Origin: Psammoneis japonica
Taxonomy: Eukaryota
Length of the DNA: 64,000 bases
Reading direction: 5' to 3'
Assembly: GCA_008632985.1 (NCBI GenBank)
Contig: QPGO01000002.1
Location: 868,001 to 932,000 of the forward strand
Position numbers and translations under genes: made by a program. Shown piece by piece: positions 30,031 through 64,000 of the stretch. The notes beneath the pieces were generated by a model. The model saw only the letters and a list, made by a program, of their open reading frames with translations, did not search any database and was not told where the DNA came from. The stretch's first letter is position 1, and every line of letters starts with the position of its first letter.

Positions 30031-30151
30031 GAGAAACGAGGTGCCAAATCTTGGTGGCATCCTGCACAAAAGTCAGTGTTGTTTCTGCATGAGAAATGAG
30101 GCACCAAAATCTTGATGGCATCCTGTGCAGAAATCAGTGCTGCATCTGTGT
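30031..30151. repeat. Degenerate 60-bp tandem duplication
   Basis: gagaaacgaggtgccaaatcttggtggcatcctgcac.. vs gagaaatgaggcaccaaaatcttgatggcatcctgtgc.. Confidence 0.85.
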
Positions 30152-30172
30152 GTGACAAAAACATTGACTCAA

Positions 30173-37397: not shown

Positions 37398-38174
37398 TGT
37401 CGTTTCCTTGTTGAAGCAGCAGTTTTACACAAGAAAGTGTGGTCTTAACTGACAATCGAGACTGTTTCTTTTGCCAGCGAGGTCGAAAAGCCAATGTAAA
37501 TATCTTTTTCAATTTTTTTGTGAATGGATTTTAGTCTCGCAACGAATGGTTTTCACGCTCCTACAATTCTCTCACGATTTTGCTGTTCACGGACACTACC
37601 AAAAACCAATCTTGTGTGAACGATTTATTTCTGAACGACGGCGGCGAGTCGTCGTCCCATTGGCAGTTGTCCAAGAAGAATTATGTTCGTGTGGCGAGTG
37701 ACATTTCGTGAGCGAGTGCACGTCAACCTCGCCAAAGCCGATCAATACTAAAAAAATACGTGAAGATATTTACGTAGAGATATTACCAATCGTGCTGTGG
37801 AAAACAAACAAATGTTTCCTCTTTTTGGGTGATACAAGATTCTTGTATATATACAATCATATAGGGAAAGTGTTGATTTTAGATCAACGAATATGAATTC
37901 ATTTTATGGAAATCTTTTCCCGCCAGAAATCCTTAAATAATAGTGTATTTAAAATAGATAGGTAGCTTGTTAAAGATTTTAAAAAGTAAATAAATATGCT
38001 TAGAACCTTAAGACATATATTATTTTGAACGATGTCCGTTCATTTTTTTGCGCGCTCAGCAATGAATCGTGTGATTGCAACGGTGTCGGCCATGCTCTCA
38101 TTGCCGCCAAAGATGCAAGACATCACGACCGCAATCATAGTTCATGGAACTGATTTTTGATTGACGGCTATGCC

Positions 38175-39863
38175 ATGAGGAGACAATGTTGGAAACCTAT
38201 TGAACTATTGGTACTTTTCCTTTTGGTTGCAACAACAGGTCAAGACGCACCAAATATCGTAATTTTGTTTGCCGACAATTTGGGTTACAACGATGTGGGT
38301 ATTTTTGGATCGCCCACCGCCAAGACACCAAACATTGATCGGTTGGGGTACGAGGGCCTCAAGCTCAATAACTGGAATTCGGCCGCACACTTGTGTTCTG
38401 CCAGTCGAGCCACGCTCTTGACGGGAAAGTATGCGGTCCGCACGGGCGTGTACCCCGCTGTCTTTTGTCCCGGCGCACAGTACGGATTGATGCCGAAGGA
38501 AACGACATTGGCCGAGTACTTGAAGAAAGATGCGGGATATGCCACTAGTATCGTAGGCAAGTGGCATTTGGGTCATTTGCACGAGTATCTTCCCACCACG
38601 AGCCACGGCTTTGACGAATGGCTCGGCATTCCCTATCACATGTCGGGTGGATCGTTGGATCAACACGAATGTGGTTACGATGTCCATCGAACCATGTGGT
38701 TGCCACTGTACGAAAATGATGAAATCATACAACAGCCGGTACAAGTCCACGATTTAGCAAAACGGTATGCTGACAAGGCAACGGGGTTCATTTCGAAACA
38801 AGTATTGCAAGAAAAGAAACCATTCTTTCTGTACATGGCCTTTTCTCATGTACATCAACTGTGCGCGCCGAAGTTTGGATCCGAACAAAACACTTGTCAA
38901 TGGGCATCTGTAAAGAATGCAACTTTTGTGGATGCCGTTCAAGAAATGGATTGGATGGCGGGTGAAATACTAAATGCACTCGATGAAACGGGCGTCACCA
39001 ATGATACTTTGGTGCTGTTTACTAGTGACAATGGACCGTGGGTGGCGGAACAAATGTGCTCGGGATCCAAGGGTCCCTTTGAGGGGCGTTGGTTGCAACA
39101 GCACGTGGCCATGAATTGCACGGCTTGTCCACATGATTTTGTGCCAGACCCGACGCGGTCGCGACCACGGCGGTGCGTACTAAACACGACAACAACAAAC
39201 GACAACCCAATCCACGCCGTGGACGGTGTCCATTGCGGCGCCGACACGGGACTGGGAAGTGTCTGGGAAGCCAATGTACGACTGCCAGCCTTGGTGCGAT
39301 GGCCGAATCACGTTCCGGCGGCAACGGAAAGCATGGAGATGGTTTCCACGTTGGATGTCGTACCAACCGTACTGTCGCTTGTGAAACAGAAAATTCCGGC
39401 TGGTTTAGATGGACAGGATATATCCAATGTGTTGCTGGGAAGAAAGACAGAGACAACAAATACTACGACACGAACTCTCTTTTTTTGGCGTGATGGTTTT
39501 CAAGACGGCCCGTTGCCTCCACCCTATGGACGATTTGACGTGGTGGCTGTCAAGCACGGACGGATCAAGGCGTGGTTTTACACCAAGAGCGCACACTACA
39601 ATGCCGATGTGGAGGTCCATCACGATCCACCCCTCTTGTTTGATATTTTGGCCGATCCTGCGGAAGCACATCCACTCGATCCGGCGCATCACGAGGCACT
39701 CATTGCCTTGATTTACAAAGCCGTCGAGCAACACAAGGCGTCGGTGGATTGGACGTTTCCTCTTGCGTTGGCACAAGATCCAAAGAATATCCCATGTGTT
39801 GATCGAGAGACGTCGTGTCGAACCTCTCAAGACAGGGATACCGTTGACCTTGCCGAGGAGTAG
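38175..39863 (+). CDS. Arylsulfatase (family S1, ARSA/ARSG-like), secreted or lysosomal
   Basis: Signal peptide, PNIVILFADNLGY, LCSASRATLLTG, GKWHLG, HGFDEWLG, FTSDNGP, PPLLFD. Confidence 0.92.
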   Translation: MRRQCWKPIELLVLFLLVATTGQDAPNIVILFADNLGYNDVGIFGSPTAKTPNIDRLGYEGLKLNNWNSAAHLCSASRATLLTGKYAVRTGVYPAVFCPGAQYGLMPKETTLAEYLKKDAGYATSIVGKWHLGHLHEYLPTTSHGFDEWLGIPYHMSGGSLDQHECGYDVHRTMWLPLYENDEIIQQPVQVHDLAKRYADKATGFISKQVLQEKKPFFLYMAFSHVHQLCAPKFGSEQNTCQWASVKNATFVDAVQEMDWMAGEILNALDETGVTNDTLVLFTSDNGPWVAEQMCSGSKGPFEGRWLQQHVAMNCTACPHDFVPDPTRSRPRRCVLNTTTTNDNPIHAVDGVHCGADTGLGSVWEANVRLPALVRWPNHVPAATESMEMVSTLDVVPTVLSLVKQKIPAGLDGQDISNVLLGRKTETTNTTTRTLFFWRDGFQDGPLPPPYGRFDVVAVKHGRIKAWFYTKSAHYNADVEVHHDPPLLFDILADPAEAHPLDPAHHEALIALIYKAVEQHKASVDWTFPLALAQDPKNIPCVDRETSCRTSQDRDTVDLAEE

Positions 39864-40097: not shown

Positions 40098-40514
40098 CCC
40101 CCCTCCAAGACTTGGCAGCACAGCCTTGAAGCAGCTCTCTTTTGGACGGTGGTTCTGCCGCCGTTGGCCAGATGCGCTCGTAAACAGAGAAAGTAACCGC
40201 TCAAGTCCGTGTAAACTTTGAACACATTTTAATTGGCTTTTACGCTCTAGCTTGTAGCTACTACTACTCTAGAGAGAACAATAGTTCGAAAAGCTAGCTC
40301 TATTTTGACAGTAAGCTTACCGGTAGTAGTAGTAAAAGTGTCTAGCTACTCTAGAGAGGGCCCTACGATGTAAGAAATCAATTTCGCGTTTTTGTGTCAA
40401 TTTTAGACTTAGTTTCGGTGAAAATGAGCTGTTTCTTCGATTTTCGTGACGTCGCTGACAATGAAACGTGAAAACCGATAAACAAGGACAAAACTAGCCA
40501 AACCGGCGAACGGC

Positions 40515-46816: not shown

Positions 46817-47996
46817 TTACACGCCAAGCTGTTCTTTTGTAAACTCGTACACCAAAAACATGGTACCAACCTAAACAAAAAGAGAGCGAGAGAATGATAC
46901 AACGTGAGACAATCTACAAGCTACACAACATCACAAGCACACATTCGACTCTCTCACCATCGGCACTACTTTTAACATTCCGGTGTCAATCCACGATAAA
47001 TACCACGCAATCCTTCTTTTTGTACCAAATTCAACACTTGTTGTCTCGATGTCATGCGTTGGTCTTGGGGGATGTGCAAATTTTGAATTTGCATGCGCCG
47101 TCGAATGGTATCAAAGGGAAAGGTCACGACGGTGCTCAAAATACCACTGGCGGCACCACACAGTAAGGTTAAACGAAATCCCAAACTCGCTTGTCCCGTA
47201 CCGGCATCGATTTTGCGTAAATTGTAAAACAATTCATCATCGAGTGCATATTCCTTGAGGGTCCCATAGACTGTGTAGGAAATGGAAAAATTGGGAACCG
47301 CCACCATGAGCGTCGGTCCCAAACCGGAATAAAAGCCCGCCATCCCTCGGCACGTGCAATTTTTTTAAAGGCATCGACAATACCACGGTAATGTTCGTGT
47401 CCTTCCAATTCGGTTGTGAGACGTGTGCGTACCAAATCAAGTGGATAACACGCAATGCAGGCAATCGAACCAGCCGTCGCGCCGGCAATCAAGCGTGATT
47501 GTGGCATGGTTGTGGTATTCGTAGTATTCTCGAGAGGCATGTCGGCCTTGTTGGAAAACCGTCGTACAATGGCGTGGGGTTGTGAATCTTCATCGTCTAC
47601 TTCTTGTACAGCCATCATGTTATTGTTGTTGTTTTGGTAATTTTGTCGTCTTCCATTGATGAGATCCAACATGTTTTCATACACAAAAAAATTAATGGCC
47701 GAAAAGGGAAATCGATGCAATACGAAGTGAAGTTGCCTCTCCACATGCTGGTAATCCACCACGTTGTACAATTTTTTGCATTCCCTCGGAAAGGTCATGG
47801 CAAATTTGGGTCGTTCTTGTTTGGTCGTCACCATGCTGTGAACTTGATAAAGAATGGTTAATCGAGAGAGAGGTGCCGTAACGGTCTTGGCGGCGGAACC
47901 GGCAACTCCACCACAAAACAATTGTTTCAAGGCTTCGACCGAACGATCATTATTGGTTGAGTAGTAATGGACGGTATTGTTTTGTGTTATTGACAT
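46817..47996 (-). CDS. Mitochondrial carrier family (SLC25) protein; intron 46957..46871; apparent frameshifts; start uncertain
   Basis: Three carrier signatures: APLSRLTILYQ, YPLDLVRTRL, FPFDTIRRRMQ; EGLRGIYRGL. Confidence 0.9.
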
Positions 47997-48608
47997 TATT
48001 ATTGGAAGTGTTGTTGTCGTTGCTCATGGTTGCATTGTGTTGTTGTGTGTTGTTTGAATGGCCGAGGCCTCGGCATTGAATATTTTTTGGAGCGCGTCAT
48101 TGTTGTTCAGCGCTTTTAGAACACTTTCTTGTGAAATTCCTCATTCCCTCGACTGCAAAGTCTGTCCACATTTTTTCTGTCTGTTTGTGATTTTGAGGTT
48201 GAATCCACAATGACACACAGGCTATAGCTGGCATGGCAGCTGTGACTCTCTCATTGTCTCTGATTGCACTCATCGGGGGAATGAGAAAGAGGATTGCAAC
48301 ATCAGGGTGTGAGGCAGTTTTTGAAGGACAGCATCAGAGGGCGCAACACACAGTGATCGGGCCTTGCCTTTTCATTGTGATTTTTGTCTCTTCAATGGAC
48401 AAATTTTTTACAGTTTCAAACCTTGTTAGTTGTGCAGCTGGTGATAAATTTTAATCTGTGACAGCCATTTTTTTTTTTAACTGTGGAGACCCTCTTTTTG
48501 TCTGCAAGAAAAAACTTCAACTGTGCAAACGTCCCCCTCTTTTCCCATTTGGCACGTGCCTTCGTTCACTGCAACTGCTGATGATCAATGTCATCAGCAA
48601 TTTTGACA

Positions 48609-50150
48609 TCACATGACAGTTTTGTCATTTAAAGGGACAAACACAATGAATTTAGTCCACTCTTTGCAACCCACAAAGACGCACTGCCATGGCTTTTTAA
48701 CATCCATTGTCAGCCAATGCCAAGTCAATGCCACGGTCCTGGTTGTCCCACATTTCCAATTTGCTTGTGCTGGAGTCTCATTTCCTTTGCTTCTGTCACT
48801 GTCTTCCTGGCTAGCTGCATCTTCCTCCTCATCTCCTTTGCCACCCAGTGTCTCCATTGCTTCATCGTCCTCCTCCTCGTCACTGGAAAGCTCCATTGTT
48901 GCTTGCACTCTCGTCTCCGTTTTCACTGGCTCTTGAGTGGTTCTTGCCTTTTTTCCTTTTTCTTTGCTCTCCTTTTTCTTTTCGTCTGTGCACCATGTGT
49001 CGAAATGCACACCCTGCTCTCTCGCCCTGTCTTCCTTTGCCTCCTTCAGCAATTTGTTGAATCGCTTCATTCCTTCATCCTTCCAAGAGTCATGCTGTCG
49101 CGACGGGTCTGTGAACAATGGAGCCGGTTTTTCCTCTTCGCTCCCTTCCTCATTTACCTCCTGCACTTTCTTGTGCTCCCAAACCTTCCAGTGGTTTTCC
49201 ATCATCAACAGGGCCAGTGCCTCGTCGCTTGCAGCAGCCAGATCTGTGGCCTTGGTGCTTCCGGACTCTGCCATCCTCCTCCACATCGCAGTGCTCTTCG
49301 TGAATTTTAGGACATTGTCATGGAACCATGCGTGTGCCTCTCTGTTCTTTTGCTTCTCAAACACAATTGTGTCCACCGTCCCATCCTCCCAAGTTGCAAT
49401 GAACTCTTCCTCAATGTCAGCTTCGTCCTGTTTCCGCTTCCTTCCGGATTTCTTCTTCCTTGCTTCTTTCTTCTTTTTTGTCGCGGATTTCCTCTGCTTG
49501 TTTTTCTGTTGTGATGACTGCAGAAAAACAAGAAATTCATTAGCAGCACCACACCCATTTTCGCTTTGGAAATGCTCCACTCCTCCTCACTTGCCACTCA
49601 TCGCACTCCTCATTGTCGTCTGACACACGGTGTTTCTTTTCGCATTGATCGCATTGAGCACGCTTTTTTTAGCCCAGTCCTCCCATGATCCTGCCCATTC
49701 ATGCTTGCTGAACTTGCCATCTGCTGTGTTTTTGTGCATCAGCCGTGACACCTTGCCACCACTTGCCATGTCCGCCTTCATGAGGAATTTTGCCTTTGGG
49801 AACAGCTCTCTCCATGCCACCTCTTCCACCTCTCTCTTTGGTGACTGGTGATCAGCAGCAGCCCCCGACCGCTGCAATGCTGCCACAAGCCTCGGGCTGT
49901 TGGGCACTCCCTCCACCCCTGCAGCATCCATCTTTGCCGCTTTCTTCCTCCTTCCCATCGCCCTCAACTCATTGTGTCACCGTCAGTTCCTCCAGTCCGC
50001 AGTCGTGCAGTGCAACAGCTCTTCAGAAGAAGATTGTCTTTGCAAAATTTCAAACCTGTTCCCAACACTTGATGGTGACACTGCCTCCCCATCCTCATGT
50101 GTTGTCAACTGTCAAATCTTTCCTGAATCATCACAATCAGTGATGTTCAT
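48609..50150 (-). pseudogene. Transposon accessory ORF 1 (SDEALALL..EN.W..W / W.DEG..RFN type), interrupted by in-frame TGA
   Basis: 49587..49967 and 48609..49580 share a frame separated by one TGA; no Tyr in 449 translated codons; 5' end approximate. Confidence 0.65.
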
Positions 50151-50392
50151 CATTTGACTTTGAAAACCACATCCTTGGTCACATTTGTTCCAGTTCAAGA
50201 GACGAAACATTCAATTTAAATCACACAATTAATTGTCAATGACAATTTTGACATGCAACTTGATCATTGCATTTGAAACTTTTAATTGTGCAGAATTGCG
50301 CATGAACATTGATCACCACAGGGCAGAAGTTTGCATCCATGCTCCATGCGCTCTTAACCCCCAATAGAAAATCTCGGCACCAAAAATGATCT

Positions 50393-51610
50393 CTAATCCA
50401 ATTCTTCCATTGCATCCTCGTCTAAATGGTCAATGACAAAATCGCTGCACCTCCCCTCACATGAGTGATCAGTCATGCGATCAAACGCACTGGTTGCCTC
50501 ACGAACACAACCAATGAAACGCTCGACGTGATGATGACGGATCTTTTCTTTCTTCATTTTTAGATGTTGTCTCCACAGTTTCCTGTCCTTTTCATTGTCA
50601 CAACAACTGTTGGACCCCCCACCCAAGCCCATTTTCTCGATGATTTCCAAGATCCAACCGTCAACCTTCCTTGGTGTCAATTCAAAGAACTCCAATTCGT
50701 CACACCGCCAAAACCTGCAAGGTGCGTCTCACTCTGCTTGTCACTCGAACCAATGTGCCAGCTTCCTGGCATCAAACACGATGCCCTTTCTGTCCACAAC
50801 CAGTTTGCACACATCTCCCAAACCGTTGTCCAATGCAAGTGGTCCGCATTTCCCGCTTTGGTCCATTCCACATGTGGGCAAGCTGATGGTTGATTCCTCT
50901 CTCAATGAATCAACATCTTGCTTGTCAATCACCAGACGAAGCTCGCCATCCCTTGATCCTGCTGCAAACCCATCATGCAGCTCATTGTCTGGTTTGTTTG
51001 ACCAACCGCTTGCCGAATGCTGTTCTCCCTGCCTCTCCGGGTGCGTTGCCAGCAAGTTCCAACACTGCCGTGTTTTGTGAGCATTCATCGCTCACTCGAT
51101 GATCAAACTTGAATGCTCGTCCTTGTTGTGAATGGAGAACATGGCCTGTGTGGTGTGCATGTGTTCCCTCACTTCCATGGTCCATCCATGCATGTTCTCA
51201 TGCACCCGGCTCATGATGTTGCATTTGGTTTCCCACAGTTCCCTCCATTTCTCCTTGATGGTTCATTCATCTCTTTCCATGTTTTTCAAATGAATCTCCC
51301 AAATTTCTTCGACATCTGCGGGCTCTTTGCCCAAGTCACCGCACGTGACCTTGCTGCATGAGCCAATTGAACAACACATGTCCATGCAGTCTCTTTGCAA
51401 GCAGGGGTCCTTGGATGGTTCCTTCCTCCCGGTGCCCATCGATTGACCCAGCTCTTTTTTAGCTGCGCTGCAGTCCGCCTCCATCTTTTCTTCTTTTGTT
51501 TCTTGTTTCATGCTCTTCACCTCAGCCAGTTTCCTCCAGTGGTCATCAGGCCAGCATGCCAGCAACAAATTGTTCTGGACAATGGAAGCCATTGTGCAAC
51601 TGCAGGTCAC
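50393..51610 (-). pseudogene. Transposon accessory ORF 2, unknown function, interrupted by in-frame TGAs
   Basis: ORFs 51263..51610, 50741..51088 and 50393..50695 are in the same frame, separated by TGA (probable CGA>TGA); Tyr-free. Confidence 0.55.
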
Positions 51611-52046
51611 TTGTCAAGTTGTGGCACAACCAGTGTTGTTCTTGATGCGTTGACGCCGTGCCAATGGTGGAACCAACAGCCGTGGAACAACGCGTGTCTT
51701 GTCACTGCGCACGCAAGTTAAAGAATTGACAGTGAGCGGTGACCACAAAATGTTCTGAAGACTGTGTTCCAACTTGCTCTTTCCTTTCCGTTGGCAATTT
51801 TTGCATTCTCATTTGTCATGCAACCCGAAAGTGTTCAATTGTCCCAACACATTCTTTTGACAGGCAACTGCAAAAGCATTCATCAATGCAAAAAAACCAA
51901 TGATCACAATTTTTGCACCAATTTCGTGTCTTGTGTCCTGCCACCCCTCACAACACACACCGTCCACATGACCAAACCTCAGCCGGAACCATTCGCGCAA
52001 TTGTTCTCACCAATGCGTGACTGTTTCTTTCCACAAAAACCCCAAA

Positions 52047-54626
52047 ATGGAGCTGCTGCAGTCCAAAAACGAGGGTAAAGAAGCAATTGCCTGTCCTTGT
52101 TGCCATCGCTCCTTCCAGCACATGCTCGGTCACTTAAATCGCAATCCACAATGTCTCTCTGTCGCTCGTGAAATGTCAAACGTGGCGTCACAAGGTGCAT
52201 CGGGACCCAACTTGTTGCCCGATGCTTGTGTCAAAGTGGCTGGCAGGCAGAGCAACTCTGGGAATGCAAATTTGTGCACAAGAACTTCTCGGGGACTCGA
52301 TTCTTCCTCGTCATCCAACGACACCTCCACACATGGATTGAGACGATCAAGACGAGGGGCCTCTGTTTCCAATGCCCACATGGCTGGTTCCACCCGGTCG
52401 TCCGAACCACCTTCTGACGCTCCATGGTCACCAGCATTCGAAGACAACATGTCCCCTCTCTCCTCCATTTGTGGCCCAGATGATGCCAATTTCGTGTCAC
52501 TGGAGATGCTTTCAGGCGAAAGCAGCGACACAGAAGCAAACTCTTTCGCCACGCTCCCGGACATCACCATGGATCTTCCAGACAGCAATGAGACGGATGA
52601 CATGCAAGCATCTCAAGGGAACGTTTCCTCTCTGTTGGATGACAGCAGATTGGGCAAGATTTACCAACACCCCACCGAGGCAGCCTTCGCCGACTTGTCA
52701 TCATTGAGCAACCTGAGCGGGGCCTGTGTGGAGTTGAGCAAGCTGACAGATGACTGCAGAGTGCCGCTCCACCTGTGCGATGACATTGTGGCATTTGTCG
52801 AAAGACATTGCGGCATCACATTCAAGCTCGGGACAAAAATGCCTCGTCGCAGTGCACTGATGGAAAGTCTTTCCAATTCGTTCCCCGGACCTGAACGAGA
52901 GATGATCCCAGTTAACCTGGAAACTCCAAGCGGCGAACGGGGTGAGAAAACTGCAATCGTGCCACGATGGAACTTCCAAGAGGTGTGGGAATCACACATG
53001 CTTGACACTCACACATGGGCTGATAAAAGCAATCTTGTGGACACACACAATCCTTTTGGCATGTGCATTGCCAAGGGCTTGGATGACAAATGCATCTTGG
53101 CTGGAGAGTGGCACAGGAGCAAGCACTCTGCCAGAGTCAAGGATCCACTGAAACAGTTCTTGGAATGTTTGATGGTCCATGTAGACAAGACGGGACAGAC
53201 GGCTTTGATGGGATCTTCTTGTGGAGAACCCGTGATGGTGACCTCTGCACATGTTGCCTTCACACAGTGGCACGACAAAGCAAAGTGGAGAGTTCTTGGA
53301 TGCATTCCCAACCTTGAAAAAATGTCTTCTTCTGCAGCCAAACAGCAGTCCAATGCACGCAAGTCGGAAAAGGGGCAAAGTCTTTGTGAGCGCCACAAGG
53401 TTTTGAAAACCATGCTTCAGCCTTTGCTTGACGCAATGGAACGGGGTGGCTTCAGGTGTTGTGTGCAACGAGGCGATGAGATCTGTCACCTGCATGTGAT
53501 TCCAACCACAATCCCAATCAATGGGGATGCAAAGAGTGGAGACTGCCTTGTGGGCAGGTGTGGCACAAAGAATTGTCACCAACGCTGCTCCCGTTTTAGC
53601 ATGACGGGATGCAATGACCTTGACGACCCTTGGAAGGAATGCAAGCTGGTGCGTGCTGGTGACTTGCTGCGAGTTCAGTGCATGGCCAATGATGAAAGTC
53701 TTGATGACAAAGAGCGGAATCACTGGAGGGAACAACTGCACTGCATGAAGCAACACAATGTTTCAACCAACAGTTTGCTGTGTGCAGACTTTGGCGAGCA
53801 ACCATTCGGAGTGACTCTTTCCACGGCCAGCAACATGATGCACCTGCATGAAAATGGCACTCTGAAAAGGGAGATCCATGCATTTGCAGACAGCATGACT
53901 GCAAACATGAGAAAGGAGGTGGGCAGACTGGTGGAAAAGATGTTCGGGAAACACCAATCCACATGCAGTTCCTCCTTTCTGCAAACCAATTTCAAAGGTG
54001 GGGCCACTTCACTCACCTTCTTAAACTCTCATCACTGGGCGGGGATGGCCTTCATCTTTTGCCTGCTGTTGCTTGCAAAGGAGGGTTGTGAGGTGTGCGC
54101 ATCCTGCTTCAGCAAAGAAGACGTGGAGGAACCGTCACTTCCCTTGGGTCACCGCATGCCGAAATTCAGAATGGACCGTCACTGCTTTCCCCAAGAATGT
54201 GACCCGGATGATGATTGCCCGGCAGTTGATCCAGATGACTGAGAAGACACGTCCGCCGATGAATGCGACACTGACCATTCTGTGGGAAACAATGACAATG
54301 ATTCAGACAACGAAGGAGAGGGCAAGCGCAAGTGAGCCAACAAAAAGAGACTCCCAATTAGATGCAGCGTTCGCCAGCATGTAAAGCTGCTTAAAGACAT
54401 GCTCACATTCCATGCATGGTGCAAGCTGGGTGACCCTCCTTCAGACAGAAACAACCTTCACAAGATTGCGAAGAAAATTCGTTTGCTGATCGCTCATGCA
54501 GTCCATTTCTCCCCAAGGCACGAGGGTGCTGGTTGGAAGCTGCAAAAACTCCATGAATTGATTCATTTGCCCACACTCCTGTTCTTCTGCCGCCATGCCA
54601 TGAATTTCGATGCTGGTCTTGGCGAA
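52047..54626 (+). pseudogene. Plavaka-like transposase, hypermutated and 3'-truncated
   Basis: N-terminal CPCC..F..MLGHL Zn-finger; MVHVDKTG, GEPV, WRVLGCIPNL, INGDAKSGD.LVGRC, NMMHLHENG; same frame resumes after two TGAs with GWKLQKLHELIHL..NFDAGLGE. Confidence 0.75.
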
Positions 54627-57298
54627 TCAGGGAATGTGGGGAACTTGAGCCGATCCACGCACACACAGGGAATTCCCATGTCACCGCCTCCACCAATGAC
54701 AACATTGTTCCATGGCCGGCTGTCATCCAGCGAGAGTTTTTTGAATGTACGTGCGGTTGGCACAGAGTCAGGATGGTTGGGACCATCGTGTTGGAGATCC
54801 ATGTCTTTAAGCCCAAAGTCAAGCTGAGTTCGGTTGTGGTGCATCCGAGTCAACATCGGGTTCATGTCGTGCTTGTCATCGCAGCATTGACCGATGGGAC
54901 TTCTGCTGTTGGTGACTGCCTTGAAGGACCATGTGTCGCCAAAGGCATCCATGACAAAGAAACAACCAGCGGCTGTTTTCCGATGTCGAAGCCAGGTGCA
55001 GTTTTTTTCGTCGCGGTGTCCATCACAAAATTGACCACAGGATGTGCGTGATCCCTGCAGGGTGACGTCCTCACGATGGAAATGTAGACAACCCATTTCA
55101 TCACAAAATGTTTTCGAGTGCTCTTCGCACTGAAGCGACCAGTTGAACGGTGGGGGATTGCCAAGCTTCCGAAGCTCGACCTCGTTTTCGCAAAGCTGAG
55201 TCGAGTCGAGAATGTCAGCGACCATGGCCTTGATTTTGGATGACTCTTTCGCGTCGAAGTTTTTGTCAGGATCAAAAACATGAAGACCATGTGTGGCCTT
55301 GGGTTTGGCTGATTTTGCAGAGCCGGGCTCCTTCAGATGACATGACTGCCCAGCACAGCCAATCTTGATCCTTCGTCTGTCTTCCTTGTCAACTGCAAGC
55401 GAGCCGTCATGTTTGAGATCTGACTCTCCCTTCAACAAAATGAAAAGCAAAAGGGTGGGAATGCACACACGAAGGCAACCAAAGTGCCCTTTGTAAAGAG
55501 AGTTTGCATGACGGGCAATGGAGAGTTCGCATGAGCAGTGATCCAGGTCAGGAGGATGCTCAGCTCTGACACGAGATGCGGCAGTTGGGTCGCTGACAGG
55601 GGTTTTGTTGGAAAAGATGTGCCAGTTGTCCCTCAGGTTGTTGGCAAGGTAAAAGTCGGCAGCGGAATGGTGAAGCACACGCTCCATGTTGGTTGCCTTG
55701 TCAATGATGTGAAGGCGTGACACATGAGCAGCAACTTCGTCTGAGGCAACAGATTGACACTTGGACGGGTCAAAGCGCTGTCGGAGTGCAAACTTGTCCA
55801 ACCACGACATGTCGTTGGGGTCCAGTGGGGGAGGCGATGCAACCGGGCCTTTCGTGGTGCCAACCGGTGGAGAGGCTGGCAGCTGGGAGGGAGGACCTTC
55901 CAGGGAAGAGGAAGGTTTGTGGGAATCCATGGTTTCCAACAAAGTGGGAAGGTCAGCGGTGAGAGTGCGGTTTGCCTCCCGGGACGACGGCAGGTCACCA
56001 GATGAAGGAGGACATGCCTTGGTGGAGCGTGATGCAGTCTTGGACTTCTTGTTGGGGACGGTCAAGGAAGGCTCTTACGCGGCGAACACAAACAAGAGGA
56101 TAAAATGTGGACACATGAGAAGACGGATGCACACGAAACATGCAGCAACAAGGGGGGGGGGGGGGGGGGGGGGGCACGCACTGTTGCACAAGCAGGTGCC
56201 ATCTTTGCGGGTCCTCCCAATTTTGCGTTTGGTTTTGGATTGATGCTCTCGTTTGTTGTCATCATCCAAGTGGTCGGCCCTCTGATCACGCATTCTGCAT
56301 CGAAGGATTGTGAGCAACTTGCTGCACTTGGGTCGTGTGCCAGGTTGTTCCTTGGGACAGCGCTTCCCAAATTCATGGTTCAACATGAAATTCATTTTTT
56401 CTTCGTGCGCCTCCCGATGGGCAAGGGAATCACCAGCCATCATCACTTTGTTCTTCACATTGCCGATTTGGTCCAGAGCAAGGCATTCCTTGACATCATC
56501 TGCCTGGGAGCCCGGGTCGTTAGAATCGCGTGACACTGGAAAGCTGTTGACGAACAGGCGCCACTCCTTTTGCATTTTGACATGGCGAAAAATCTGCATG
56601 AACCAGCAGTCGAAGTCATTTTGTTTGTGCTGAACATGATGCGTTGTGATTTCGGTGACACAAAATGCACCGTGAAGGTCTTCTGCACGGTCGTCGATCA
56701 ATGATTTAAGATGGTCGCACCCAAGAAAACAGAAACAAGGCTTGCCGGAAACAGGATCATTCAGGTTGTCACCAGCGACAATCGTGTGGACAAATTCTAC
56801 CATGACTTTGATGTTGCGGTGAAGATGCACACGGTGCTCCTCTTCTTTAACTGTCTCTCTGGGCATTTTGGAGAAATGGAGAGCTTCACCCAAATTTCGA
56901 CAACGAAGGCAGCATTGACCTTTCAGCGAACGGGATTTCTTCAGGGACCAACCACAAGTCTTGATGCAAGACCAAACATCAGGGCATCCAAGAGTTTTCC
57001 TGACAATGTTGTTGGTGCGGATGACTTCCGTGACATGTGGAATTCGATGCAACTTTGGCTTGTGGCAAAGGAAGGGAAGAGCGAGAAATTGCAGAGAGGG
57101 AGTCCATTTGGTTGACTCCAAAAACTGCTTTTTGGATGCACGCATTGAAACTGTGCTTTTGAGCTTGGGACCAAACATTCCCATTCCAAAACCGTTGGCA
57201 AAATGTTCTGTGTCATCAAAATCACATTCATCAGGAAATTGGAAGGAAGGATCGGGGTCGACCTCGTCGTGGGATGGGGTGAAGTCGTTGACCACCAT
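54627..57298 (-). pseudogene. Transposon-borne gene with possible divergent TET/JBP-like 2OG-Fe(II) dioxygenase region; probable intron 56181..56074 containing a 23-nt C/G run; 3'-truncated
   Basis: 407-aa and 500-aa ORFs in one frame; REDVTLQ..FCDGHRDEKNC (HxDxxN at 55018-55001) then FKAVTNSRSPIG; very Tyr-poor. Confidence 0.45.
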
Positions 57299-57851
57299 GG
57301 CAAGAGGTCAGTTGTGATTTGCGTAGAAAGTGCGTGGACGACAACAGTGCATGCTCAGGTCGAATGTAGTTTGGGGAGAGGATGTGCTGTTGTGAAATGC
57401 GCGGAGAAATGCGCATGTAGAATGAGCACTCAAAGCCGGGTAGAGAGCCATGCACAGAAATTCCAGGAGGTGCTGGAAAAATGAGACTGGAAATGTGCAC
57501 GGGGGAGACTGGAGCGCACCGAACAGCAGAGGACATGCCAGTTGACACGGTGGGGTGTGCATGATGTGGAGCTGTTAAAAACCAAAATCAAAGATGTCGT
57601 TTTGACACAAATGTGATGACATGATCAAATGGAAATGTGCAAAATTCAACAAAAGAGAAAATCAAATTGAATTGTTGAGAATGATTGAAAACAAACAGGT
57701 CACAAATGTCAGCATAAAACGGATTTAATGAATGCAGTGTGTTGTTTAAATTTGCACGCAAAAATTGTGGTTAAAGGTGCAACAAAATTGACATTAATTG
57801 GCAAAAATCGCATGAAGAAAATTGAAAACCACTGTGTTGCCGCCTCTGATG

Positions 57852-58520
57852 GGCAGGTGGGGTTGCCCAGCACAGTGGCTGTTGCAAGTGCTCTGGCTCA
57901 TTTGCATGCTGCCCTCCCAGTTGAAGCATGACAAGAACATGCCTTGCTGCCTCTCTCCCCCTTGATGATCTGCAGCAGCCAGCGTGCCTGCAAAGGAGCT
58001 CCGGCTTTGCTCCCTGCAGCTTTGTCTTTTTTGCCTTTGCTTGGTTTGCACTGTGATGCATCTTGATCTTTCTTGCTCTGCCCCAGTGCTTTTTCAAACC
58101 TTGGTGCACATGCACTGACAAGGAGTGGGGGGTGAGGGACAGCAGGCTTGGTGGGCCAACAACAATGAGAGTGGGGTGTTGGGCCCAGGGTGCAAGAGAC
58201 AGACAGCCTTTCAATGAAGTCATTGACGACAGTGCCAAGAAGCATGGTGAGCAAGTTGAAATTGATGGTTGGGTGGTGCAGCCAGCTCATTCAATCCACA
58301 GAAAACAATCACAGCACATGACCAATGACTTTTGAAGTTCCCATTTGGAGGTCATTCTGCATTCTGACTTTCAGCCAGTTTCCACCAACTTTGGCATGTT
58401 GCTCTAAGGTCAACTGGAAAGTGACACTGCTGTCGTCCTTTGGACCAACAGACTAAGTTTTCTGTTCTCATGCATTGCATTGGCTGTGCATGTCGAATGA
58501 CAACATCAGATAAATAATGA
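57852..58520. mobile_element. Older TpA/CpG-depleted remnant flanking the Plavaka-type element (similar DNA at ~48130-48330)
   Basis: Both TA and CG rare, unlike the CG-retaining element interior. Confidence 0.5.
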
Positions 58521-58721
58521 GCAGTCCTTCTCAATTATCAGGTGTCTATAGGGTACAGAGGCATCACTTTGGACAGACGAGATGCAAGTGGCAGGTTGCA
58601 TTCGCTCTCTTTGTCCTCCAAAACCTTCCGACAAATCCTTCCAGCACACCTCGTGTCGACCAACAAAGTCCCTGTCACGAGAAAACCGACTTGCCGTCTA
58701 CTAGCCCGGAGCCTGGGCATC

Positions 58722-61700
58722 TCATATGCGTCCACGCTTTCTGTCGGCAAATGTCTCCAAGTCGGGCGGAATGGCATGTCTCCCTGCTCTCTGGGATTCG
58801 ACATACTGCACAAGATGCTCTTCCAGAGAATCCCTAGGAATGTCAGCATGGCCCAACTGGTTAACAAGAGCAGGCCAAAGAGTTTTGACCATGTAGTTAA
58901 CAGAGTACTTGGTTCCTCCGTTTCCTATTCGAATCAAGTCATCCACGTCAGGGTGATATCCGTCCAGATTGTCCATCATCCAGAGAGCAGGTATGACGTG
59001 GATTCCGTCCCTCCTTCGCCATCGATTCATAAATGTGTTCAGCTCTTTGACACAGAATCGGCGTTTGCGGTAGGTGGGAGAGAGAATTAAGACGGCGTGA
59101 GTGCACATGCACGCGGGAGGCAATAAAGCTTCCATTTTTGTGGTCCCTGCACTCGTGCTTTCCTCGTCTAAGAAGGCCCCCACCTTGAGAATCTTGGTCA
59201 AGAACCAGTAGGTTGGGCGCGCAATTTCTTCCTTGACTCCATCACGTCCAGTATGGGAAAGGAAGACGTACAGAGTAGGGCTTATGGGGTAAATATGTGT
59301 TGGATTATCCACATCAGGCAAAGAGAGCTCTCCCACATCCTCCTCGGCATCGTCAAGCAAGAGACGAGTGTTAGAACTGGGAGCAGTGCCCCATCCAAAG
59401 TCGATATAGTCTTGACAAAGCCGGCAAAAGGGCTTTTCCGTGGTTTCGAAAATCGTATCCCACGAGAAATCTGTTTGTTCTTCATCCTTACGTTTGCACA
59501 GACACTTTGGACACACTACTACAATGTCACACAGCAACCCTGGCAGTCTGCTCGCTCTTTCTTTTTCCACAAAATTGACGGCTTTATGGAGAAGGCTTCG
59601 CGTGCCAAGCCCAAGGAGTTCTCCTCGAACAGAAAAGATAAGGCAAGGCTCATCATTTATGTGGCCAAGCTGGGCCCGTATGCGATGGCCATCCTTCGTA
59701 ACCACAATAGCACCATAGCGCCACGCATAGACGCAATCACCATGCCGATGGGCATCAGCGGCAAAGTGGGCAGCGAGGCTCTCTGGGCAACCAGCAAAAA
59801 GCTGTATTCGGAGCTCTCGTTGCTTCATGCTGACTGGTGTTTCGTTCGGCCACATCTCGTTGGCATCTCTAATCGGCTTTTCTTGTAGACGGAAGAGAAC
59901 CACTGGACGTCTCTCGCCGCTCCGTCTTGAAGGTAGCGAGGAGTGAAATATAACACCAGCATTGACGAACATCTCAATGATTGGGTCAAAGTCTGAGAGC
60001 TTGAGTTCGAGATCGCGCCATAAGAATGGCAAAACGACTTTATCCAGCTCCCCGGACTCAGTAAGATTTTCCAGCCCATCAATTAAATGCTTGCGACTCG
60101 TTCCAGACTTCCTCACATACTCAGCTACCTCAGCTGATTTCTTCACAGAGGCTGTCGTCAGAGTGTGATCAATGAGCGGGCGCAGCAAGTCGGTCACAAA
60201 GGTGGGTCTCAAAAAGACAAGATCGGAGTCAATAAAGACATCCCCCTGTGCCTCGAGAAGATTAAGTGCATCGTTGAAAGTAAAAGGGCTTGCCCTGACA
60301 TTGGCCGACACTGCCAAAAACCGATTCCACATGGAACTGAGCTCATTTCTAGGACTGTATGCGCCTTTCGCCTTTGCAGTTGTCTCATCCACCGCACTGA
60401 CTGGTCGAGCATTTGCAGAACGGGCTTTTTCAAAGAGCTCACCTTCGTCCGTGTCAGGTCCGTGCTCCCGAAATGCTCCAAGTAACTTCCACACCAATAC
60501 CCACGTGTCTGGGATGGACTGACCAACGCTCGGGAAGTTTGGAGCAATGTGTGAGATTAAATTAAAGACTTTCTGTTTGGCGGCAAGGGGATCATTCTTC
60601 ACTGATATAGCAAGGATCTCAGGTAATATTGTTAGTGACCTGCTGCGTAAACGCGGTCGCGAAGTGCGCCATCCTTCGAGTGTCTCGTCGACCTTTCTTT
60701 TGAGCCACTTCTTTTTGCTCTCAATTCCCGAGGGATCCTCATCTACTTTAGAAAGAATTAGTTGTATTGTAGCACCTGGTGCTCGTGCATGCAGAAGCAC
60801 GAGGAAACGAAAAACGGCTTGGTCATAGTGTTCATCGCTGGCCTCATTGATCCCCACAAAGAGGAGGTAAACTGCCAGACCAGTAAGAAAGGGACACTGT
60901 CCCACGGCATAGACTTGTTGTCCGCCACAATCATAGATCAAGATCCGCAGTGGATCGCTTCTGGTTGGACGTAGATGCAATGGTATACTTTTTAATTCGA
61001 GGTAGGTAGTGGCACGATCGTGTCCATCTCCCGTGAGCGCAGGTTTTTCACCAGCCATGGCACGTCGTAGACTCGTCTTGCCCGCTTCACCACCTCCCAC
61101 AAACACGACCTTGAGCTGCTGGGAGACTGTGGCACCACCATGCAGCTCTTCAAAATAACGGGCGATAGGTGGTAGTCCTTGCTTAGCTATCTCTATAGGA
61201 GGTTCTTGAAGCGGGTTGTCTTCAACAAGGAGCTGGCAAGTGCGGGGCAATTCGGCTATTGAACGAGGCAGCTTTTTCAACAGATTTCCTCTCAAATCTA
61301 TTTTTTCAAGATCATTTGTGAGGTTACCAATTTTATCTGGCAATGATGTGAGTCCGCAGCTTCGAAGATCAAGTGTTCGAAGACTGGGAAGCAAAGGAGT
61401 ATTGCTGTCAATTTTGTAGCCGCAGATATGCTCCACTCCCTCCACAGTGATCCCTTTACACCAGATAAATTTGATTAGCTCGAGATTTGGACAATTCTTC
61501 GCAACAGCTTGAATCGTCTTATCTGTGAGTTTCCCGCCACAAATGTCGATTGTCTTGAGTTGGGAACATTTCTCAGCAAGATCCACCAAAGAATCATCCG
61601 TGAATTTTTCGCACCAGCAAACACTGAAGCTCTCAAGATTCTTGCAATTCTGCGCCATTGCACGTAGCGTCTTGTCAGTGAGTCTCCAACAGTATCGAAG

Positions 61701-62558
61701 ATCAATCGACTTGAGATTACGGCATTGAGCGGTAAGAGCTTCCAACGAATCATCAGTAAGTTTGCAGCACGAGGCAAGATTGATTGACTCAATATTCTCA
61801 CAGTTCTGCTCACAGAGAACGCGAGTTAACTCAGAATCAGTGACCTTCCAACACTCTCTGCCAGACAAGTCAATGTCGTACTGAGGTTTGGCATCTCCTT
61901 GGGTCATACTTGCCAAGTCTTCCGGTAGATTCTCAATTGGCGTTGTGTACTCGCGCATAAAGGAGTTGTTGCTCAACCCAAGTCCAGCCAAGTCTTCGTC
62001 TTCCATCAGCCAATGAAATCTCTTGTTTATGCTAGGACTTCCGTCGTAGACCTTCATACGCTCAGCCCATTCAGGGTCTCGACCAACTTGAATCTCGGAG
62101 ACCCAGTGCATACCGGGGGCATGAAAATAGCCAGGGAGCTTCATATTGTAGAGAAAGCTGGCACGTTTTAACGGTAAGATAGGGCCAAGGATTCCCATTA
62201 TTCTCTCTACTCCAAAATCATTGACAATATTCGCTGATGTCAATGTTTGTTCGCCTTTCCATTGATCGAGAAGTGTGCGGAGAAGCAGAAAACTCAACTT
62301 CCGATCCATGTTCAAGTCCACAGCGCCTTCGGCTCCTCGGTCGAGATTTTTTGCCCATTCTTCTGCCCACATGTCAACATGTTTACGGGATTGGCGTTGA
62401 TTAGCACGGATACGGTTGAGGCAATCGTTAACGATGCCGGAGTCGCACATATCGATGCACTCTTGGATATCTTTGCAGTTCCTGACAGCATCGAGAGCGA
62501 TCCGGAATTCATCCTGCGGCCAATGGTGATATGCGGGTATCCTACTCTCTTCTGCCAT
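58722..62558 (-). CDS. Roco protein: Cys-containing LRRs + classical LRRs + Roc GTPase + COR + CxxC pair + C-terminal TIR domain (1278 aa, single ORF)
   Basis: 26-aa LRRs (CRNLKSIDLRYCWRLTDKTL); P-loop VGGGEAGKTSL, YDCGGQ, SKVD, ISVK; CPKC..CRLC; TIR VFLSHTGRD..AFLDE..ILSPTY..FCVKEL. Confidence 0.92.
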   Translation of the reverse strand: MAEESRIPAYHHWPQDEFRIALDAVRNCKDIQECIDMCDSGIVNDCLNRIRANQRQSRKHVDMWAEEWAKNLDRGAEGAVDLNMDRKLSFLLLRTLLDQWKGEQTLTSANIVNDFGVERIMGILGPILPLKRASFLYNMKLPGYFHAPGMHWVSEIQVGRDPEWAERMKVYDGSPSINKRFHWLMEDEDLAGLGLSNNSFMREYTTPIENLPEDLASMTQGDAKPQYDIDLSGRECWKVTDSELTRVLCEQNCENIESINLASCCKLTDDSLEALTAQCRNLKSIDLRYCWRLTDKTLRAMAQNCKNLESFSVCWCEKFTDDSLVDLAEKCSQLKTIDICGGKLTDKTIQAVAKNCPNLELIKFIWCKGITVEGVEHICGYKIDSNTPLLPSLRTLDLRSCGLTSLPDKIGNLTNDLEKIDLRGNLLKKLPRSIAELPRTCQLLVEDNPLQEPPIEIAKQGLPPIARYFEELHGGATVSQQLKVVFVGGGEAGKTSLRRAMAGEKPALTGDGHDRATTYLELKSIPLHLRPTRSDPLRILIYDCGGQQVYAVGQCPFLTGLAVYLLFVGINEASDEHYDQAVFRFLVLLHARAPGATIQLILSKVDEDPSGIESKKKWLKRKVDETLEGWRTSRPRLRSRSLTILPEILAISVKNDPLAAKQKVFNLISHIAPNFPSVGQSIPDTWVLVWKLLGAFREHGPDTDEGELFEKARSANARPVSAVDETTAKAKGAYSPRNELSSMWNRFLAVSANVRASPFTFNDALNLLEAQGDVFIDSDLVFLRPTFVTDLLRPLIDHTLTTASVKKSAEVAEYVRKSGTSRKHLIDGLENLTESGELDKVVLPFLWRDLELKLSDFDPIIEMFVNAGVIFHSSLPSRRSGERRPVVLFRLQEKPIRDANEMWPNETPVSMKQRELRIQLFAGCPESLAAHFAADAHRHGDCVYAWRYGAIVVTKDGHRIRAQLGHINDEPCLIFSVRGELLGLGTRSLLHKAVNFVEKERASRLPGLLCDIVVVCPKCLCKRKDEEQTDFSWDTIFETTEKPFCRLCQDYIDFGWGTAPSSNTRLLLDDAEEDVGELSLPDVDNPTHIYPISPTLYVFLSHTGRDGVKEEIARPTYWFLTKILKVGAFLDEESTSAGTTKMEALLPPACMCTHAVLILSPTYRKRRFCVKELNTFMNRWRRRDGIHVIPALWMMDNLDGYHPDVDDLIRIGNGGTKYSVNYMVKTLWPALVNQLGHADIPRDSLEEHLVQYVESQRAGRHAIPPDLETFADRKRGRI

Positions 62559-62879
62559 CTTGAGAATGATCTTCTCTTGTCGGCTTTTCTCGGGACGAGC
62601 CAGGAAAAGGAAAAGAGTCCGTCGCCGTTGAGTTGCTGAAATAAGGTATCTCGTTCATTGTGTTCATTGCAGAATTTGGGCGTGCACCCCTGTGGTACAG
62701 TACAGTATGGGAGAATGGGAGAATATGGTGATGTCATGGTTACGTGGCAGTTTATATCTTATTCATTATATTTTTATATAAATGTCCTTACATTGATTTA
62801 TGCATTTGTACACAAATGCTATTATAGTAGCAGGAAAAATCCTGAACCATGTTCTCCCCTAAAACTCTAGGGCCCTAAC

Positions 62880-64000
62880 CACCAAAAACCGAGGGTTACG
62901 GAAGCGCACTTTTGGCAGCTCTTTTCTCCGCACAAAAAACACGCGTTTTGACGACTCGACCATGATGATGCCTCGTGGTTCTTCCCCATCGCCTTCCCAG
63001 GACGCCGATCCTGCTGATGCCATTGCCAATGACACTGATGCAACAGGTGATGTCATCATTTCTCGTGGGTGTGACACATGCAAAAATGCACCACTTGAAA
63101 CCTTGCCAAGTCGCCTGCAAACAAGTGCCAATTCGCTGACCTCTCCAACTTGAAACTAAAAAATGTGAAAGCATGCCTGCCATCCAATTGTTGTCAGGTT
63201 TCTAATGCACAGAGAGAGAGCCACACAGTGTGTCTGCACATTCTAAAAATTAGACTGCACTCGAGCGCCAACCAAGCGTCGCCATTCATGTCCATCGATG
63301 TGTCATCCATCAGCAGGCCGTGGTTGCCTGGGTTTCCTGGTCTGCCGTCATCCATTGTGCTCCTTCCAAAGCAAAAACAATGACAGTGTCAACAGCACCT
63401 GTGGCAGTGAGGGCAGGAGTGACAGCATCGGGCATGCCAGGGGACCGAGATGCGGGCACGGCTTTGGAGTTCGTGATGGCATCTGTGGGAGGCAGTGGGG
63501 CGAGAATGAAAGAAGTGTGAGTTGTCAGCATTTCATTGTGGATGTCATTGGCAAAAGACAATGACAGTGTCAACAGCACCTGCGGCAGCAAGGGCAGGAG
63601 CAACAGTGTCGGGCATGCTGGGGGCCCGAAACGCAGGTGCGGCTTTGGAGTTCGTGACAGCATCTGTGGGAGGCGGCAGAGCGTGCAAACAACAGTGTGC
63701 AATTCCACAAGAGGCCACTCTTGCCATTTGAATTCTACACATGATGTGCAACATGCTGTTTTTGCAAGTTGCTAAAACAGAGGCAGGTGGCAACGTGCTT
63801 TTGGCAAATGCTCGCTGTGTTTGTCACTGTCAGACCTTCAAAACCGGTGCCATGTCAACAGCTGTGCTGCCACTTTGCATGCTGGCACCTTCTCTGCCCA
63901 CATTCCATTGGCTACGTCCTCCTTCACATGTTGCTGTGGTTGTGTTTGTGCAAGTTTCCTGGTCCGCCATCATCCATTGTGCTCCTTCCAAAGCAAAAAC
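62880..64000. mobile_element. TpA-depleted island F (runs off the window)
   Basis: TA loss with CA/TG excess; internal repeats. Confidence 0.65.
63371..63683. repeat. Two ~130-bp direct repeats (period ~181); leader of a further copy at ~63968-64000
   Basis: acaatgacagtgtcaacagcacctg at 63377 and 63558; catccattgtgctccttccaaagcaaaaac at ~63349 and ~63971. Confidence 0.85.

Follow-up and report, generated by a model that had tools for sequence, protein, structure and literature searches.

The 64,000-nucleotide stretch of Psammoneis japonica contig QPGO01000002.1 analysed here (the window) contains, at 48332–57851, a copy of a multicopy DNA transposon of ~9.5 kb bounded by terminal inverted repeats (TIRs). 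The element carries the remnant of a transposase gene on the plus strand and a convergent second gene on the minus strand. An initial annotation of the transposase frame had proposed that wholesale recoding of Tyr to His or Cys, through transitions at the dinucleotide TpA, inactivated the enzyme while the frame stayed open. The recoding proves not to be a property of the transposase. The whole element has lost ~85–90% of its TpA, in coding and non-coding DNA and on both strands equally, and the second gene and five other blocks of the window are affected too.

Transposase gene and transposon at 48332–57851

The open part of the transposase frame spans 52047–54239 (+), with 731 codons from the ATG at 52047 (741 in the initial annotation), or 756 codons from stop to stop (51972–54239). 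It terminates at a TGA at 54240–54242, which sits in an acidic linker. A second in-frame TGA follows at 54333–54335 in a Lys/Arg-rich linker, at a position that is K or R in several homologues; a change from CGA to TGA is a possible origin of this stop, judging by those residues, although both stops lie in variable linkers where ancestral codons are not inferable. The frame is indeed long from 52047, as first described, but position 54626 is reached only through these two TGA codons, the only in-frame stops in 860 codons.

The sole Tyr of the open frame, correctly counted in the initial annotation, is the TAC at 52662 within ...GKIYQH.... The frame holds 37 Cys, 31 His, 30 Met and 17 Ile, and its codon counts are TAT 0, TAC 1, CAT and CAC together 31, TGT and TGC together 37, and ATA 0. 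The median Tyr share of the 150 best homologues is 2.87%, which corresponds to ~21 Tyr per 731 residues; by our own arithmetic the Poisson probability of at most one Tyr is ~2e-8. Eight TA dinucleotides remain in the 2193-nt open part, one of them in the Tyr codon, and they are spread over all three codon phases. Residual coding TA in the transposase is not protected. The span 52047–54626 holds 11 TA, where the window's normal DNA would predict 94.8 (P ~1e-27).

A phmmer search of 1.84 billion representative proteins yielded 532 homologues at E ≤ 1e-3, and for 37 the E value was 1e-30 or lower. The best match (E 2.6e-115, 36% identity) covers residues 16–692. Among the 15 best long homologues scanned, PF18759 was found in 14 (E ≤ 1e-3), and 10 reached the gathering score of the model (26.3 bits). 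The closest ESM Atlas clusters are Plavaka clusters, in which PF18759 occurs in 28–92% of members, and a word-indexed homologue search with the open reading frame (ORF) at 52047 returned nothing. Because of its phmmer homology to proteins that carry PF18759, the frame can be assigned as the remnant of a Plavaka-type (KDZ/CACTA-like) transposase, in agreement with the initial annotation. The copy resembles Plavaka, or Kyakuja-Dileera-Zisupton (KDZ), elements in this homology, in its TIR-bounded structure and in its large transposase, whose homologues usually fall in the 1000–1400 aa size class. It differs in that it fails the Pfam model, is truncated, contains stops, has lost conserved residues and lacks a recognisable target-site duplication.

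Homology to the family was found by tblastn over 52092–54626 (E 1e-143), and its full extent by tblastn and blastp, 52092–54629 (+) in one frame, corresponds to residues 2–872 of the best hit, the homologue P0002 (1154 aa). The 3' end of homology lies at 54611–54632 in the seven homologues tested, and the ~280 C-terminal residues of P0002 have no counterpart in the window (tblastn/blastp, stops read as X). At 94 columns conserved in at least 75% of 50 homologues, the window retains 55 residues against a median of 81 (range 32–90) in normal homologues; 16 of the 94 columns lie beyond residue 700, past the query cut, and are unreliable. Five conserved Arg are replaced by Trp, Cys or Gln (codons TGG, TGT and CAA), replacements that on codon evidence follow the pattern of CpG decay. 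Two invariant residues are altered, D596 to Asn and C518 to Ser; D380 and D494 are retained. The conserved core of a functional Plavaka enzyme is thus not intact in the aligned sequence. The inactivation by missense load first proposed is borne out as far as conserved Tyr residues were lost, but it is only part of the damage: the copy is also broken by the two TGA codons, by a probable deletion of the 3' ends of both genes that costs the transposase ~280 residues, and by missense of the CpG type at Arg codons and the change of D596 to Asn.

The convergent second ORF (54566–56074, −) comprises 503 codons with 2 Tyr. Upstream of it, a further minus-strand ORF (56078–57307, −) comprises 410 codons with no Tyr and ends at a TAA at 56075–56077. 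The minus-strand frame from 57307 to 54566 overall has 2 Tyr in 913 codons. The TAA is itself a surviving TA, in a GTAA context, which is one of the partly spared contexts described below. Pfam gave nothing for either minus-strand ORF at E ≤ 10. The only relative found for the second gene is P0272 (613 aa, 4.1% Tyr), residues 2–252 of which match the window from 55378 down to 54629 (−) at 50% identity. At the 10 positions of this alignment where P0272 has Tyr, the window has Cys five times, His four times and Phe once, but never Tyr: a gene unrelated to the transposase shows the same Tyr recoding. The homologies of the 3'-truncated transposase and the 3'-truncated minus-strand gene meet at a junction at 54626–54632 (tblastn/blastp). 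Because both stop at ~54629, the two convergent genes appear to have lost their 3' ends in a single internal deletion. Deletion derivatives exist in the element family, as contigs that skip large internal parts show (for example, from 49838 to 55791).

The TIR arms lie at 48332–48350 and 57833–57851; they are 19 nt long and 89% complementary, and each begins CATCAGAGG. No matching target-site duplication was found at the arms in the flanks, which are themselves eroded. One public sequencing run, X1, contains the stretch (share 0.43 of the 31-mers sampled from 50000–58000), together with two runs of the same sample; no RNA run was listed as containing it. From X1, 3823 short contigs align to the region at 80–99% identity. 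Their summed depth rises in the bin starting at 48335 and drops in the bin 57675–58141, a copy-number step that agrees with the TIR positions. The right flank outside the TIR (57852–58400) is single-copy: in its 549 bases there are no TA against 20.2 expected, and 3 CG against 31.7. A single-copy X1 contig begins at 57822, includes this TA-free flank and is identical to the window through 60000. The flank would be an older repeat, fully eroded, that served as the insertion site of the element. TA density is normal up to ~48000 and again from ~58511, and the borders of erosion around the 48–58 kb element lie within ~100–200 bp of the neighbouring host genes. The neighbouring ORFs are of ordinary Tyr content, with 10 Tyr in 284 aa (47172–48023) and 28 Tyr in 1310 aa (58725–62654).

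Fate of conserved tyrosine codons

To follow individual Tyr positions, the ORF was aligned with 50 normal homologues using MAFFT at fast settings. This multiple alignment is approximate, and pairwise BLAST counts served as an independent check. Ten columns have at least 40% Tyr, and pooled they are 64.2% Tyr in the normal homologues, which individually have a median of 6 Tyr and 0–2 His, Cys or Arg at these columns. The window has H, C, H, H, H, C, R, C, K and R, that is, no Tyr and nine His, Cys or Arg. The corresponding codons are CAC, TGC, CAC, CAC, CAT, TGC, CGC and TGT, plus AAG and AGG; the first eight (CAY, TGY or CGY) are derivable from TAY through transitions at the T, the A or both. 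The initial annotation had named seven residues in six motifs as former Tyr. All seven (H242, C340, H356, H360, H378, C419 and C505) fall in columns that are 41–92% Tyr in the 50 normal homologues. These homologues have Tyr and not His or Cys there, so the observation that would have refuted the initial annotation was not made. The proposed route from TAY to CAY or TGY is therefore upheld and extends to Arg through CGY. In the pairwise BLAST counts, the Tyr of 115 homologues faces His at a frequency of 0.208, Arg at 0.128 and Cys at 0.119 in the window, whereas with 15 normal queries as control homologue Tyr faces Tyr at 0.336 and His at 0.059.

Three long homologues in the hit list, P0061, P0062 and P0084, are likewise Tyr-poor, with one Tyr each. 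P0061 (1290 aa) and P0062 (1200 aa) are full-length Plavaka-like proteins without an internal stop and share 39% identity. No relatives turned up in two metagenome scans, for which P0001 and P0061 were the queries. P0061 and P0062 show the same pattern of Tyr to His or Cys as the window, in other lineages. At column 449, which is 94% Tyr, the window has Arg (CGC), and one each of Tyr, His and Cys is found in the three other Tyr-poor proteins. Read from the alignment, these residues represent independent outcomes and not common ancestry.

The genetic code bears directly on the open frame. A change of TA to CA or TG cannot make a stop from a sense codon, and it erases TAA and TAG in all six frames. 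Stop-to-stop segments of at least 100 codons number 43 per 10 kb in the element against 23 in normal DNA, and 41 ORFs of at least 80 aa are listed in 6 kb. The frames are long because TpA loss destroys TAA and TAG on both strands. The open frame is a by-product of TpA loss and gives no sign of constraint.

These data bear on the view that the element family itself avoids TpA and CpG under selection, with functional proteins, for example in response to a TA-targeting nuclease, UpA-cleaving RNases, insertions at TA sites or CpG methylation. The length of the frame (731 codons) and the existence of full-length Tyr-poor Plavaka proteins of 1290 and 1200 aa would fit such adaptation. Long frames follow automatically from TpA loss, however, and the window copy has stops and a truncation. 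Tyr residues with 90–94% conservation in the family are replaced by His, Cys or Arg, an invariant Asp has become Asn, and the Tyr-poor lineages took different residues at one column. Depletion is also equal in non-coding DNA and in all codon phases. We consider element-side adaptation very unlikely.

TpA erosion across the window

The element is one of six TA-poor blocks, whose cores total 21,335 of the 64,000 bases (~33% of the window) and whose edges are sharp. In the element (48332–57851), 55 TA were counted against 349.9 expected and 341 CG against 549.0. The block at 1500–3020 has 11 TA against 55.9 and 70 CG against 87.7, and block B at 6450–12700 has 15 TA against 229.8 and 24 CG against 360.5, with a relative abundance (rho) of ~1.9 for CA and TG and a longest ORF of 291 aa. 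The blocks at 15900–17180 and 29850–31900 have 3 and 6 TA against 47.1 and 75.4 expected, and 4 and 26 CG against 73.9 and 118.3, respectively. The last block, 62900–64000, runs off the window end and has 7 TA against 40.5 and 39 CG against 63.5; inside it, two 130-nt direct repeats (63373–63683) are 83% identical and lie 181 nt apart. Blastn among the six blocks found no similarity between them and no common family. When 45 ORFs of the TA-poor blocks were scanned with Pfam, the single match was weak and below threshold (CBP4, E 0.0044). The five blocks besides the one at 48–58 kb are presumably repeats as well.

Across the six blocks the rho of TA is 0.04–0.12, against 0.54 in the rest of the window, and the rho of CA and TG is 1.55–1.92. 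In 1-kb windows, TA rho is 0.02–0.04 at 7001–12000, with CA and TG rho each at 1.80–2.10, and 0.03–0.18 at 48001–58000, with the CA/TG mean mostly at 1.4–1.8. The element core has 833 CA and 823 TG on the plus strand. Because these counts are equal and both His and Cys outcomes occur, both strands must have been affected.

Strand equality also bears on A-to-I editing of a transcript by an ADAR-like enzyme, followed by copying back into DNA. ADAR-type enzymes favour a 5' U, which would match TA, according to the discussion in a preprint on TpA-specific hypermutation in Bigelowiella natans (Mettrop et al., bioRxiv 10.64898/2026.01.13.699255). The element, however, is a DNA transposon: it has TIRs, encodes a DDE-type transposase and lacks a reverse transcriptase. 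Its strands are equally affected with both His and Cys outcomes, and the single-copy flank outside the TIR is affected too. RNA-level editing is extremely improbable as the source of the pattern.

CpG is depleted in the same blocks, unevenly (rho 0.06–0.75). Survival, defined as the residual density in block cores relative to normal DNA, is 0.10 for TA and 0.40 for CG. In the block at 1500–3020, TpA was lost and CpG is nearly normal, which suggests that TpA erosion comes before CpG decay or can proceed independently of it. Diatom transposons are CpG-methylated. Ordinary decay, in the form of methylated-CpG deamination with GC-biased gene conversion or drift and no TpA-specific process, would account for the CpG depletion and for the CGN to TGN or CAN changes at the five conserved Arg codons. 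CpG decay cannot, however, remove TpA or turn TAY into CAY or TGY, a point on which the initial annotation was right. Its reach is further limited by the lower survival of TA than of CG and by the block at 1500–3020, where TA was lost while CG stayed nearly intact. The G+C content of the blocks (0.465–0.515) is no higher than the 0.482 found elsewhere, and AA, AT and TT are not depleted, which speaks against a general AT-to-GC drive. Ordinary decay is therefore a highly improbable explanation of the whole pattern.

The TA dinucleotides that survive are far from a random sample of contexts. Survival is 0.70 in TTAA, 0.40 in CTAA/TTAG, 0.15 in GTAA/TTAC and 0.11 in CTAG. It falls to 0.056 in CTAC/GTAG, 0.051 in ATAA/TTAT and 0.035 in ATAG/CTAT, and to 0.014 in GTAC and 0.009 in ATAC/GTAT. 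In ATAT it is 0, with none in block cores and 128 in normal DNA. Contexts containing TTA or TAA are favoured among survivors (Fisher P 2e-14). With Y for pyrimidine and R for purine, 60 of the 97 residual TA lie in YTAR and 2 in RTAY, whereas among the 1487 TA of normal DNA the numbers are 234 and 475, respectively. This bias of survival toward YTAR over RTAY is present in every block. The two ends of the element have a somewhat higher TA density, mostly as TTAA. The 70-fold spread in context survival is too large for a composition effect; TpA being palindromic, the data do not separate a preference at position −2 from one at +1. CpG survival followed no clean R/Y rule by context, and CpG loss was therefore treated as a separate process.

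Context also speaks to the possibility that modified bases in silenced repeats (5-methylcytosine at CpG, modified T or A at TpA) were miscalled as transitions in sequencing or assembly. Repeats are the likeliest regions to bear base modifications, and the library type of the sole run containing the stretch is not on record. Such miscalling would have to spare TTAA largely while erasing ATAT fully, and to recur in the X1 Logan contig that matches 57822–60000 without a difference, in a run that contains 43% of the 31-mers sampled at 50000–58000. Three long Tyr-poor Plavaka proteins also occur elsewhere in the protein library, and the Bigelowiella precedent was built on Illumina data. We regard a sequencing or assembly artefact as a very remote explanation.

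Between the blocks, the window carries host genes. The uninterrupted 1310-aa ORF at 58725–62654 (−) adjoins the eroded element. In the ESM Atlas it comes closest to clusters of bacterial Roc-COR / LRR / TIR_2 (ROCO-type) proteins, with scores of 0.95–0.97, and it may be an immune-type gene resembling nucleotide-binding leucine-rich repeat (NLR) genes. The longest host ORF is an uninterrupted frame of 2636 aa at 17506–25413 (+), with three 222-bp tandem units (64–77% identical) at 23954–24466 in the coding frame. An intact arylsulfatase-A-like gene lies at 38154–39860 (+), with PF00884 and PF14707 in its relatives; the named relatives are all diatoms at 54–62% identity, which points to a diatom-like host, and the best relative reaches 69%. 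Three TA-rich islands at 1001–1250, 37751–38000 and 40251–40500 have 32, 29 and 23 TA per 250 bp, respectively, against an average of ~9. These short islands separate host ORFs and may represent intergenic or promoter DNA.

Origin of the erosion and known systems

We conclude that the frame at 52047 is probably a Plavaka remnant in a 9.5 kb transposon copy that was TpA-eroded in place by a host process targeting silenced repeat or foreign DNA. Under this explanation, the process would act on silenced DNA where it lies and halt ~100–200 bp from host genes. On the evidence, the lost TpA became CpA or TpG, and in some cases CpG through changes at both bases, by which Tyr codons turned into His, Cys or Arg codons. 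The process would run faster than the accompanying CpG decay, prefer RTAY and largely spare YTAR, TTAA above all. It would work in the manner of the TpA-specific hypermutation seen when Bigelowiella natans lines accumulate mutations. The leading candidate chemistry would be adenine deamination in DNA at 5'-TA, with enzymatic thymine oxidation as the alternative.

Several points weigh against this conclusion. The PF18759 model, which the initial annotation named as a check, gives no match to the ORF at E ≤ 0.01 and none even at E ≤ 10. The direction of DNA change is read from protein homologues that are only 24–50% identical, and for the five other blocks it is read from composition. Only the 48–58 kb block is shown to be a transposon, while the other five have no recognisable family and are not similar to each other. 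The expected counts and context survivals given above take the window's host DNA, and not the ancestral element, as the normal reference. X1 may be the sample behind the window assembly, in which case its agreement with the window is not independent proof. The enzyme behind the TpA loss is itself postulated. With regard to timing, each copy may have been mutated where it lies, or a founder may have been mutated before its amplification. Among 40 positions listed of the ~1617 that vary between copies, most changes private to the reference are at CpG, and one has CA in the reference against TA elsewhere.

The last points are those on which a one-off founder would draw: a single copy that was hypermutated or drifted TA-poor and was then amplified (for example, in trans), so that the signature is inherited. 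The family is multicopy with deletion derivatives, and the mostly CpG-type private differences, with one clear TA-versus-CA, would fit TA loss mostly before the copies diverged. On the other hand, six mutually unrelated blocks have the same signature and context bias, so the process recurred many times at least. Transitions account for 1205 of 1616 variable positions between copies, and the 40 listed include three adjacent CA-versus-TG double differences, which point to an ancestral YpR site resolved independently after the copies split. A transposase deprived of the conserved Tyr, of an invariant Asp and of five conserved Arg could not have brought about its own spread. We consider a founder origin unlikely, and erosion in place by a host process remains the preferred explanation.

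The closest known system is that of Bigelowiella natans. In two viral insertions, 230 of 231 new mutations were A>G or T>C, all at TpA, according to the main text of the preprint (Mettrop et al., bioRxiv 10.64898/2026.01.13.699255), which describes TpA-specific hypermutation of integrated nucleocytoplasmic large DNA virus (NCLDV) and virophage DNA in only some lines. The same text reports 324 TpA-poor coding sequences enriched in DDE(-endonuclease) and reverse-transcriptase domains, lists 124 genomic clusters and proposes an ADAT2-like deaminase as the agent. The likeness to the window lies in the change of TpA to CpA or TpG on both strands, and in clusters of 1-kb windows where TpA is low and CpA+TpG is high. 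The cut-offs of the preprint for such windows, as given there (rho of TpA ≤ 0.43, rho of CpA+TpG ≥ 1.52), are passed by 7001–12000, 51001–52000 and others, with CA and TG rho computed here separately and not pooled. Change from TpA to CpA or TpG on either strand is indicated in the window by codons and by composition. Restriction to foreign or repeat DNA, as described for Bigelowiella, is seen for the 48–58 kb transposon, and the other five blocks were not identified as repeats. The two long-term sequence features of Bigelowiella-type hypermutation that were fully testable thus both appear to be present.

The two systems also differ. New mutation was shown in Bigelowiella, according to the preprint, whereas the evidence in the window is a sequence signature. 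The substrate described there is viral insertions, in contrast to a cut-and-paste transposon and other unidentified blocks here. Erosion is near saturation in the window (rho 0.04–0.12), against a rho of 0.45 reported for the Bigelowiella NCLDV region, and TpA makes up 6.0% of the Bigelowiella genome by the preprint's figures against 3.7% of the window's normal DNA. CpG loss accompanies TpA loss in the window and is unmentioned in the preprint main text. The preference for RTAY over YTAR likewise has no counterpart there: the words 'context' and 'trinucleotide' are absent from the main text, figures and supplements aside. The hosts are a chlorarachniophyte in one case and a diatom-like organism in the other. 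Bigelowiella genes are intron-rich. Our literature search found no report of TpA hypermutation in diatoms, and the main text of the preprint contains no mention of them.

Repeat-induced point mutation (RIP) of fungi, which requires duplication and a sexual cycle, turns C into T, chiefly at CpA; TpA arises, A+T goes up and stop codons appear. It resembles the process proposed here as a host process that introduces dinucleotide-context transitions into repeated DNA and kills transposon genes in place. The window differs: it has lost TpA at unaltered G+C, and its TpA changes generate no stop. The initial annotation had set the outcome against the nonsense-rich result of RIP, and the genetic code supports that distinction, as TpA transitions make no stop from a sense codon. 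RIP was rejected as the cause: TpA is depleted and not enriched, G+C is 0.465–0.515 against 0.482, and 860 codons contain 2 stops.

Deamination of methylated CpG in silenced transposons shares with the window the decay of CpG to TpG or CpA in the same blocks. It explains the change of Arg to Trp, Cys or Gln in the transposase and possibly the TGA stops. It differs in that it cannot give TpA loss or Tyr to His or Cys, and here it is slower than the TpA process. A further lead comes from dinoflagellates, another lineage of the stramenopiles, alveolates and Rhizaria (SAR), in which TET/JBP homologues make 5-hydroxymethyluracil (5hmU) by thymidine hydroxylation, a modification reported to silence transposons (PMC11572971). 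The likeness is an enzymatic modification of T in DNA in connection with transposon silencing; the passages of that paper on the subject describe no mutational outcome, and 'TpA' is absent from its text. A 5hmU route is conceivable, by analogy, as a T-side path to T>C at TpA, and serves as a lead for mechanism only.

Herein, our findings present the window as a further case of a very recently described kind of TpA hypermutation, with saturation, a slower co-occurring CpG loss and the preference for RTAY over YTAR as new details. They also point to an annotation hazard. Eroded regions keep long frames in six reading frames and yield Tyr-free 'proteins' that fail family models and word-based searches; here the transposase, which phmmer detects at E 1e-115, escaped Pfam as well as a word-indexed search. 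For mechanism, the window adds constraints beyond the main text of the preprint, namely erosion to saturation, a rate that outpaces the accompanying CpG decay, and erasure of RTAY with sparing of TTAA. Any candidate enzyme must reproduce this tetranucleotide preference. If genome-wide analysis confirms saturation, slower CpG loss and RTAY preference, these features would matter for mechanism.

TpA hypermutation has been described only once before, in the 2026 preprint, and diatoms are a major phytoplankton group. If a host process is responsible, TpA hypermutation of invading DNA would not be peculiar to one chlorarachniophyte and would act on ordinary diatom transposons too. We tentatively put forward a broader proposal, which we hold to be plausible but somewhat short of probable. 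Diatoms may possess an active, repeat-directed DNA editing system, a 'reverse RIP' that turns TpA into CpA or TpG on either strand of silenced transposons, prefers RTAY and spares TTAA, outpaces methyl-CpG decay and kills by missense without stops. Together with Bigelowiella, it could represent a widespread and possibly ancient form of SAR immunity, whose enzyme would by nature edit A to G in double-stranded DNA in a sequence-specific manner. If this is true, such a natural editor of duplex DNA would also be a possible tool.

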